Source: Microbotryum violaceum (taxonomy: Eukaryota). From it: a stretch of DNA of 50,778 nucleotides. Under the pieces are notes generated by a model. It did no database searches and was not told the origin of the DNA. It saw only the letters and a list, made by a program, of their open reading frames with translations. Below, in pieces: positions 44,021 to 44,744 of the stretch. Location of the stretch: contig LN717261.1 in assembly GCA_001244265.2 (NCBI GenBank), positions 1,055,813-1,106,590 of the forward strand, written 5' to 3'. The number at the start of each line of letters is the position of its first letter. The first letter of the stretch is position 1. Both the position numbers and the translations under genes were made by a program.

Positions 44021-44365
44021 TGTGAGGAATTCACTCTCCGCTCGCCTCAGGACTTAGGCGCGCGGAGCGAACCGGGCGCGGACTTAGGCGCGCGGAGCGA
44101 GCCGGGCGCCCCGGCCCAGGACTTAGGCGCACAGAGCGAGGCTGGGACTTAGGCGCGCGGAGCAAGCCTGGGCCATTGGCTCAGCCCCGAGGCTCGCTGG
44201 CTGAGGACTTGGCGCGCGCGGCTCTTTTGTTGTTAGCTTCCTATTCATCACTCTTGGCTATAACTACACCGCTGACGTAGTAGAGTTGATTGAATAGGTA
44301 TGTTGAAATGGATTCATCACTCTTGGCTATAACTACACCGCTGACGTAGTAGAGTTGATCGAATA
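44021..44365 (+). repeat. Family D 5' LTR (TGTGAG...GAATA, two U5 units)
   Basis: 3' part repeated at 49086-49177; followed by a PBS. Confidence 0.9.
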
Positions 44366-44366
44366 G
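44298..44366 (+). other. Putative 69-nt intron in the family D LTR
   Basis: GTATGT donor, GCTGAC branch, AATAG acceptor completed by the G of the PBS. Same length as in family A despite a diverged interior. Confidence 0.7.
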
Positions 44367-44648
44367 GTTATGAGCCAATGAGCTACCAGCTGCTCATGGG
44401 TTCAAGCCCCCCTGGGGTCAGGCAATTTTGCGCGCACCCCGCACTTGCCTCCAAAGCCGCACCTCCTGGGTCAGGCAAATTTCGTGCGCGCCCCGCACTT
44501 GCCTTCAAAGCCGCACCGACTGCCACAAGCTCTTCAGCTTCGCGCACAGGGGGTGTTGAACCTCCCTCCATCTCACTTCTAGGACAATATGCGCTCCCTG
44601 AAGTAGAGGTGCCTCTCCTTTTGGTGCAGTGGTATATTGCTCCTAATA
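44366..44648 (+). mobile_element. TRIM-like unit (PBS, non-coding interior, PPT, 95-bp LTR) between the D LTR and the D PBS
   Basis: PBS 44366-44395; two ~53-bp direct repeats; PPT AGGGGG 44548-44553; LTR 44554-44648 matching the solo copy at 34182-34276. Confidence 0.85.
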
Positions 44649-44674
44649 GGTTATGAGCCCAACGAGCTACCAGC
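44649..44674 (+). promoter_or_regulatory. Extended 26-nt half-tRNA-iMet PBS of family D
   Basis: GGTTATGAGCCCAACGAGCTACCAGC is the reverse complement of a tRNA segment from the D-loop to the anticodon stem-loop (CAT). Confidence 0.88.
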
Positions 44675-44744
44675 CCCGCCGCTTGCGGTTTTTTCGCTCG
44701 AGCCCAGCCACTCGAGCCGCACACGTCCATCGCACCATCACATC

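Follow-up and report, generated by a model that had tools for sequence, protein, structure and literature searches.

A TRIM of Microbotryum violaceum is joined to unrelated copia LTRs at its PBS, probably by cross-family template switching

We identified a short non-coding retrotransposon of the TRIM type in Microbotryum violaceum which is joined at its PBS to LTRs of several larger copia families. The joints probably arose in reverse transcription, when RT changed templates between families at the PBS that they share, and the products then integrated normally. The window (the whole stretch of DNA that was analysed, 50,778 nt, C1:1055813-1106590) belongs to a 33.2-Mb assembly of 20 contigs and is a nest of LTR retrotransposons. 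Matches to its D element mostly fall in one cluster per contig, and these clusters look centromeric. Below, C1, C2 and so on denote contigs, L-numbers denote loci, and D, D', A, B, E and F are labels of LTR types.

The composite element of the window lies on the plus strand and starts with a 5-bp TSD copy (44016-44020) and the 345-bp 5' LTR of the autonomous copia family D (TGTGA...GAATA, 44021-44365). The first PBS (44366-44395) is of the TRIM/tRNA type, with one deletion and one substitution relative to the 31-nt complement of tRNA-Met nt 10-40, and opens the TRIM interior (44366-44553, 188 nt including PBS and PPT). This interior contains two 54-nt direct repeats (44411-44518) and ends in a short polypurine tract (PPT, 44548-44553). 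It is followed by the 95-bp TRIM LTR (TGTTG...TAATA, 44554-44648; the mini-LTR), by the second PBS leading into the D leader (44649-44674), in which 26 nt are identical to the tRNA complement, and by the D leader with a frameshifted gag-pol in copia order (44675-49082) that ends prematurely inside RNase H. A truncated 3' D LTR (49083-49177) then borders the flank of another D insertion. This order had been given in the first-pass annotation of the sequence and its coordinates were confirmed; both junctions indeed read AATA followed directly by GGTTATGAGCC, and the 283-bp unit between them has no TSD and only one mini-LTR. The Pfam domains of the D gag-pol are arranged as zf-CCHC (zinc knuckle), Pol_BBD (protease region), integrase rve and RVT_2. 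Helper D is a Ty1/copia element, with gag, protease, integrase and RT in this order and an RT of the RVT_2 type. The terminal piece, which gave no Pfam match, we take to be RNase H from its position and motifs. The end of the D LTR (44243-44368) is a 69-nt tandem duplication that is missing from some copies, and the composite's own LTR pair differs by a 30-nt unit. Two single TSD-flanked plain D insertions (L049/L039 on C7 and L041/L048 on C2) have LTRs that differ by the 30-nt GC-rich unit and the 69-nt terminal unit, as two templates would give.

The window D element is broken, not only by its frameshifts and its truncated 3' LTR: its flanks have been swapped with those of another D copy. 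The 5' and 3' flanks show no match to each other. Since both reappear in reverse order around the D copy L109 (C1:1175029-1180212, minus strand), and empty sites were found for both flank pairs, the two D copies have exchanged arms. The partner of the TSD at 44016-44020 now lies beside L109 through this reciprocal exchange, and the empty site of the window TSD is present in L085 and also as a loose end in short-read run X3. We infer that the window composite originally had its own TSD, which was reconstructed across the rearrangement. The opposite orientations of the window copy (44021-49182) and L109, with their swapped flanks, imply a crossover inverting about 75 kb. A further locus near C1:990-997 kb (L106) has both flanks in common with the window copy at 99.3% identity and is a duplicate of it. 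In the duplicate of the window copy, the first PBS is the full 31-nt complement of tRNA-Met nt 10-40. Contigs from three short-read runs contain parts of the helper and of the mini-LTR, none of them reaching across the whole composite; run X7 contains a TRIM-free D joint and has no cover at 44417-44510, which is no proof of absence.

The 283-bp passenger corresponds to a single unit (PBS-interior-PPT-LTR) of a genuine TRIM whose LTRs are 95 bp long. A genome search with positions 44361-44680 gave at least 64 matches (40 of 41 candidates were scored), and the 64 matches resolve into 22 interior-bearing loci, two of which are duplicates (L002 of the window copy and L012 of L003), leaving 20 events. 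The genome-wide look for free two-LTR TRIMs that the annotation had suggested yielded seven copies of 325-378 bp, all seven with a 5-bp TSD; their LTR pairs are without differences in five cases, with one difference in one and with an indel in one. All nine full-length solo mini-LTRs tested also have a 5-bp TSD, two of them at one duplicated site; this count excludes one 5'-partial LTR and four diverged solos. The solo mini-LTR in the window (34182-34276, minus strand) had been recognized before, and it is 99% identical to the mini-LTR of the composite and has its own 5-bp TSD. The proposal that the mini element is independently mobile is borne out by these seven free copies and nine solo LTRs, all TSD-flanked. 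The unit is not a fixed part of family D leaders either, as 8 of the 12 close D leaders that keep a PBS lie behind a plain D LTR and lack it, and four lie behind a mini-LTR. The element is below 1 kb, has two near-identical LTRs with a PBS and a short G-rich PPT beside them, and makes TSDs. Its interior of 135-190 nt is too short for gag-pol, and among the loci of this genome search we found no intact coding element bounded by two mini-LTRs.

The interior repeats, read earlier as hairpins, are the two direct repeats at 44411-44518, and only one of them is present in 10 of 26 TRIM units. A hairpin function for them found no support, as the fold is not significant (z +1.21; 176 of 200 shuffles fold as well). 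The fold of the mini-LTR at 44554-44648 is a single long hairpin (z -2.68), equalled by 1 of 200 shuffles. Diverged solo mini-LTRs (L119-L122 on C2, C9 and C5; 87-96% identity) have different end letters, at least two of them have TSDs, and they lie outside the main retrotransposon clusters.

A foreign LTR lies directly before the TRIM PBS at 10 of the 22 interior-bearing loci. It is of type D in the window, in its duplicate, on C9 and on C3, of type D' on C2, of type A on C2 and C18, of type B on C11, of type E on C11 and of type F on C1. At an eleventh chimeric locus (L005, D'), 45 nt of mini-LTR are found between the foreign LTR and the TRIM PBS, and across the 11 loci six LTR types are joined to the TRIM. 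Other elements that carry the unit at the PBS, for which the annotation had proposed a genome search, are present in several families, some with their own TSDs. Wherever an intact foreign LTR at the start is combined with a mini-LTR at the end, the insertion is flanked by a 5-bp TSD (3/3: L014, 630 bp; L005, 791 bp; L010, 598 bp); by arithmetic, such a match is expected by chance about once in 1000. Helper-TRIM-helper composites of the same build as the window copy, both with a TSD, were found for F (L105, with LTRs identical at 474/474 positions) and for A (L108, internally inverted). Four loci, among them L013, which consists of a family-A body, PPT, A LTR and TRIM unit and has lost its 5' end, are truncated or rearranged and stand outside the TSD tests (the others are L016, L019 and L004). 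Of the three-LTR tandem insertions, the one that allowed a judgement (L003, with L012 as its duplicate) lacks a TSD, in line with ectopic recombination. Fold-back (inverted) joints beginning within a PBS or immediately behind it occur in several families (L096 at C5:132211-132460, L130, L019, L016 and L108). L086, L087/L137 and L127 belong to a repeated type of element that combines an E-like LTR with a PBS of tRNA length and with a leader and gag resembling those of D; this type may be an older chimera of autonomous families, joined at the PBS, that spread later.

In ordinary nested integration, the TRIM would insert at the end of a helper LTR and later lose one mini-LTR, and the TRIM does insert into other retroelements, including the LTR of one of them near its end (L111/L116). 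Such nested integration is nevertheless largely refuted, and we regard it as extremely improbable, as none of the 10 loci, all joined at the same nucleotide, has a TSD around the TRIM unit or a remnant of a 5' mini-LTR, the PBS is duplicated instead of a TSD, and mini-LTR and helper LTR share no homology beyond their last 3-4 nt.

It had also been suggested that the TRIM unit hitchhikes, with the composite transcribed from the helper promoter and spreading as a unit. In that case, helper LTR and TRIM unit together would become an extended LTR through priming at the second PBS, and the TSD-flanked chimeras would be its solo forms. L013 and the three insertions L014, L005 and L010 do have the shape that extended LTRs would leave, and L008, a 1356-bp composite between mini-LTRs that includes part of the D gag and has a TSD, shows that composites can be integrated. 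However, the TRIM unit is found at both ends in none of the three complete composites (0/3), no composite occurs at two different TSDs, and the TRIM units differ from one chimera to another. The window copy and L106 share both flanks and therefore represent a duplication, whereas the C9 composite differs from the window by 13 substitutions in about 825 nt and from a plain D copy by 7, and has another allele in its second PBS. The D composites are one segmental duplicate and one independent event (C9). Spread of the D composite as a unit was not found when window copy, L106 and C9 composite were compared, and a hitchhiking lineage is very unlikely as the route of spread.

A tRNA-Met(CAT) gene with a 19-nt intron was found at C12:29062-29153, with a pattern that ends at the intron; none of the 12 dispersed PBS matches is a tRNA gene, as those matches are other LTR elements. 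The T-loop, first pair and anticodon stem of the C12 tRNA agree with those of an initiator tRNA. The TRIM PBS is an unbroken 31-nt match to the spliced tRNA, from nt 40 back to nt 10, so that the complement begins at nt 40 and spans the intron joint, and the helper PBSs are mismatched to the tRNA at position 7 and elsewhere. In computed pairings, a 31-nt tail copied from the tRNA binds the PBS of the TRIM at -43.9 kcal/mol and those of D, A, F and B at -24.3 to -30.0 kcal/mol, and for the tRNA half the values are -68.2 with the TRIM RNA and -39.0 to -49.4 with the helpers. We propose that the TRIM and the helper families would be primed by the same 40-nt 5' half of tRNA-Met.

Copies of this tRNA half are found elsewhere in the genome. 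Near-complete copies of the 40 nt are present in 3 of 52 PBS stretches (L130 at C12:1198054, 39/40; L134 at C1:860144, 38/40; L095 at C4:212327, one substitution and one deletion), and three further stretches of the 52 hold 32-35 contiguous nt of it. The 52 stretches came from a search with a tRNA-like pattern, with 3 of 85 pattern matches left out, and they establish existence and give no rate. At L130, L134, L095, L133, L126 and L127, which represent several families, the LTR end is followed by 32-40 nt of the tRNA-Met half and then by unrelated or inverted sequence. Long copying of the tRNA thus does occur in this genome, and the copies behind LTR ends are fossils of plus-strand primer read-through. 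The window has such a read-through scar itself, a 34-nt copy of the tRNA-half complement with 33 matches between a family-A LTR and its own PBS (20664-20697, minus strand). At PBS position 7, which faces C34 of the tRNA, the G is repeatedly replaced by an A (L134, L145, L010 and the families D, D', E and F), even in copies that are otherwise of tRNA length. A search of the genome for tRNAs gave no tRNA gene with the letter matching this A, and misreading of a modified tRNA base is one possibility.

The letters of the PBSs at the joints allow the switch points to be placed. Plain close D copies carry an A at PBS position 7 and one A fewer at positions 13/14 (8/8). Both PBSs of the window copy, and those of its duplicate, carry the TRIM/tRNA letters instead, so the second PBS, labelled earlier as a D PBS, has neither of the D-specific differences and was wrongly assigned. 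The C18 composite, too, has the tRNA-type letter at position 7 of its second PBS. In the composites on C9 (D) and C1 (F), the TRIM allele comes first and the helper allele second. At L018 and L016 the joint between mini-LTR and helper PBS carries the terminal CATA of the helper. L010 has an A at position 7 as in its helper; this letter is ambiguous, since an A is also found in L145, where it follows an LTR of family A, which itself has a T. Switch points thus spread over a stretch that begins within the LTR end and extends beyond PBS position 14, a scatter that indicates copy-choice behaviour and not a fixed attachment site. The suggestion that the PBS serves as a dedicated attachment site does not agree with these variable points or with six joined LTR types, and att-like site-specific integration was rejected, as the D alleles are absent from both window PBSs and the crossover point differs among loci.

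Addition at the DNA level, in which a 1-LTR circle, a tandem array or cDNA of the TRIM recombines, through microhomology at LTR end and PBS and with gene conversion as needed, with a helper that may or may not be integrated already, would account for several features of the composites. The same helper family is present on both sides in 3/3 complete composites, the C9 and F composites have a reciprocal allele pattern that fits a crossover within about 10 nt equally well, the helper CATA is found at two mini-LTR joints, and the region is heavily rearranged, including the exchange between two D copies. The shared homology, put at about 28 nt in the annotation, is however limited to three blocks of exact TRIM-D identity of 10 nt, 6 nt and 12-13 nt, and the TRIM/tRNA allele is present in both PBSs of the window and C18 composites. 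For the window copy, a simple exchange with a 1-LTR circle is not supported, because the D differences would have to stay in one of the PBSs and are absent from both. Insertion of a circle into a resident element can also not yield L014, L005 and L010, since their TSDs enclose two unrelated LTRs. We consider DNA-level addition unlikely as the general route; it may explain some composites and the TSD-less tandem L003. Of the two routes of formation suggested at first, the use of shared LTR-end/PBS homology holds, with template switching by RT as its most likely form, and the simple 1-LTR-circle crossover does not, as the D allele is in neither junction.

Under the template-switch reading, RNAs of the TRIM and of an autonomous Ty1/copia helper would share one particle. 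Strong-stop DNA of the helper plus strand, with a copy of the tRNA at its end, would anneal to the TRIM minus strand, and this first switch, an intermolecular plus-strand transfer, would give helper LTR-PBS-TRIM interior-mini-LTR. Integrase would insert such cDNA with unrelated LTRs normally and leave a 5-bp TSD. The window form, helper LTR-TRIM unit-helper body-helper LTR, would result from a second switch back to the helper, which may be another jump of the plus strand or copy-choice during minus-strand synthesis on TRIM RNA that is tandem or read-through. The observations behind these steps are the mobility of the TRIM, the catalogue of chimeras, the TSDs around unrelated LTRs, the 31-nt tRNA complement, the PBS alleles at the junctions and the tRNA-half copies elsewhere. 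The reading is probable; it draws on one assembly, from which we infer the RT intermediates, the particles and the RNA. Two observations are at odds with parts of it: plain helpers keep their mismatched PBS (D 8/8), so tRNA tails are not normally inherited, and the helper CATA at the L018 and L016 joints is not predicted by a pure double plus-strand jump. As a tentative extension, the TRIM might act as a trap for strong-stop DNA: with its perfect 31-nt match to the tRNA half, it would outcompete the mismatched PBSs of the helpers both for the primer and for helper plus-strand DNA with a long tRNA tail. If this is true, the TRIM would take LTRs, and with them a promoter and an integrase end, from any co-packaged copia family; the PBS in half-tRNA-primed systems would be a family-independent joint, and integration-competent cDNA with unrelated LTRs would be routine.

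Passages on Cassandra TRIMs and on non-autonomous elements of sugar beet describe two LTRs, a PBS, a PPT, 5-bp TSDs, solo LTRs and arrays of three to four LTRs (PMC7215508, PMC13570524), and chimeric sugar beet TRIMs with an LTR from another TRIM (PMC13570524). As in those plant TRIMs so far as described there, the TRIM of the window is a short non-coding element with two LTRs, PBS, PPT, 5-bp TSDs and solo LTRs; it differs from them in that about half of its interior-bearing loci are joined to larger copia LTRs exactly at the PBS. The complexes described by Sabot and Schulman (2007) have three LTRs, two internal regions, alike outer LTRs and one TSD, and were attributed to co-packaged RNAs and a switch at R between near-identical elements; they are rare, with 2 in about 7 Mb of Triticeae sequence and 1 in rice (PMC1950507). 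One TSD and alike outer LTRs are also present in L105 and L108, and in the window after reconstruction across the exchange. Unlike those complexes, the M. violaceum composites have an unrelated middle LTR and joints at the PBS, and occur beside insertions with two unrelated LTRs.

In Ty5, Drosophila copia and fungal Helenus TRIMs, the PBS is reported to be the complement of the anticodon arm of a spliced tRNA-iMet (PMC10886601). The present system resembles these half-tRNA-primed Ty1/copia and Helenus elements, as outlined there, in its anticodon-arm PBS, copia helpers and 5-bp TSDs, and differs from those of that outline in that its PBS complement is 31 nt long and continues through the D arm, and from Helenus in the lack of tRNA-like sequence in the mini-LTR. 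Membership in Helenus, Cassandra or Ajax was rejected, as an Rfam scan of 44300-44750 gave neither a tRNA nor a 5S match and only one chance-level match (E 3.6). Guidance of the second strand transfer by PBS homology, co-packaging of RNAs and template switching are covered in sections of a review (PMC6894440), and switching between mini and helper RNAs is shown for mini-Tnt1 in the portion of that report dealing with it (PMC2923131). The cases in these portions concern switching within one family with identical LTRs, whereas here it is cross-family and between unrelated LTRs. A search of part of the literature gave no report of a TRIM with about half its copies joined at the PBS to several helper families, including TSD-flanked insertions with unrelated LTRs. 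Older studies of intermolecular plus-strand transfer in retroviruses and Ty elements may already contain the basic step. Plants are known to have both template-switch complexes and tandem TRIMs, and what appears to be new, against the literature covered, are the frequent cross-family PBS chimeras with unrelated LTRs.

That the two LTRs of an element are identical counts as a rule of reverse transcription, and elements are found and dated on this basis. Insertions whose single TSD encloses two unrelated LTRs escape finders of LTR pairs, and they are fossil evidence for a second strand transfer that can take place between molecules and between families. The partnership between TRIMs and their helpers is called unknown or hard to trace in passages of TRIM papers (PMC7215508, PMC13570524). 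The chimeras would record which autonomous families share particles with the TRIM, and with the diagnostic alleles of the PBS the mechanism can be tested by nothing more than sequencing.
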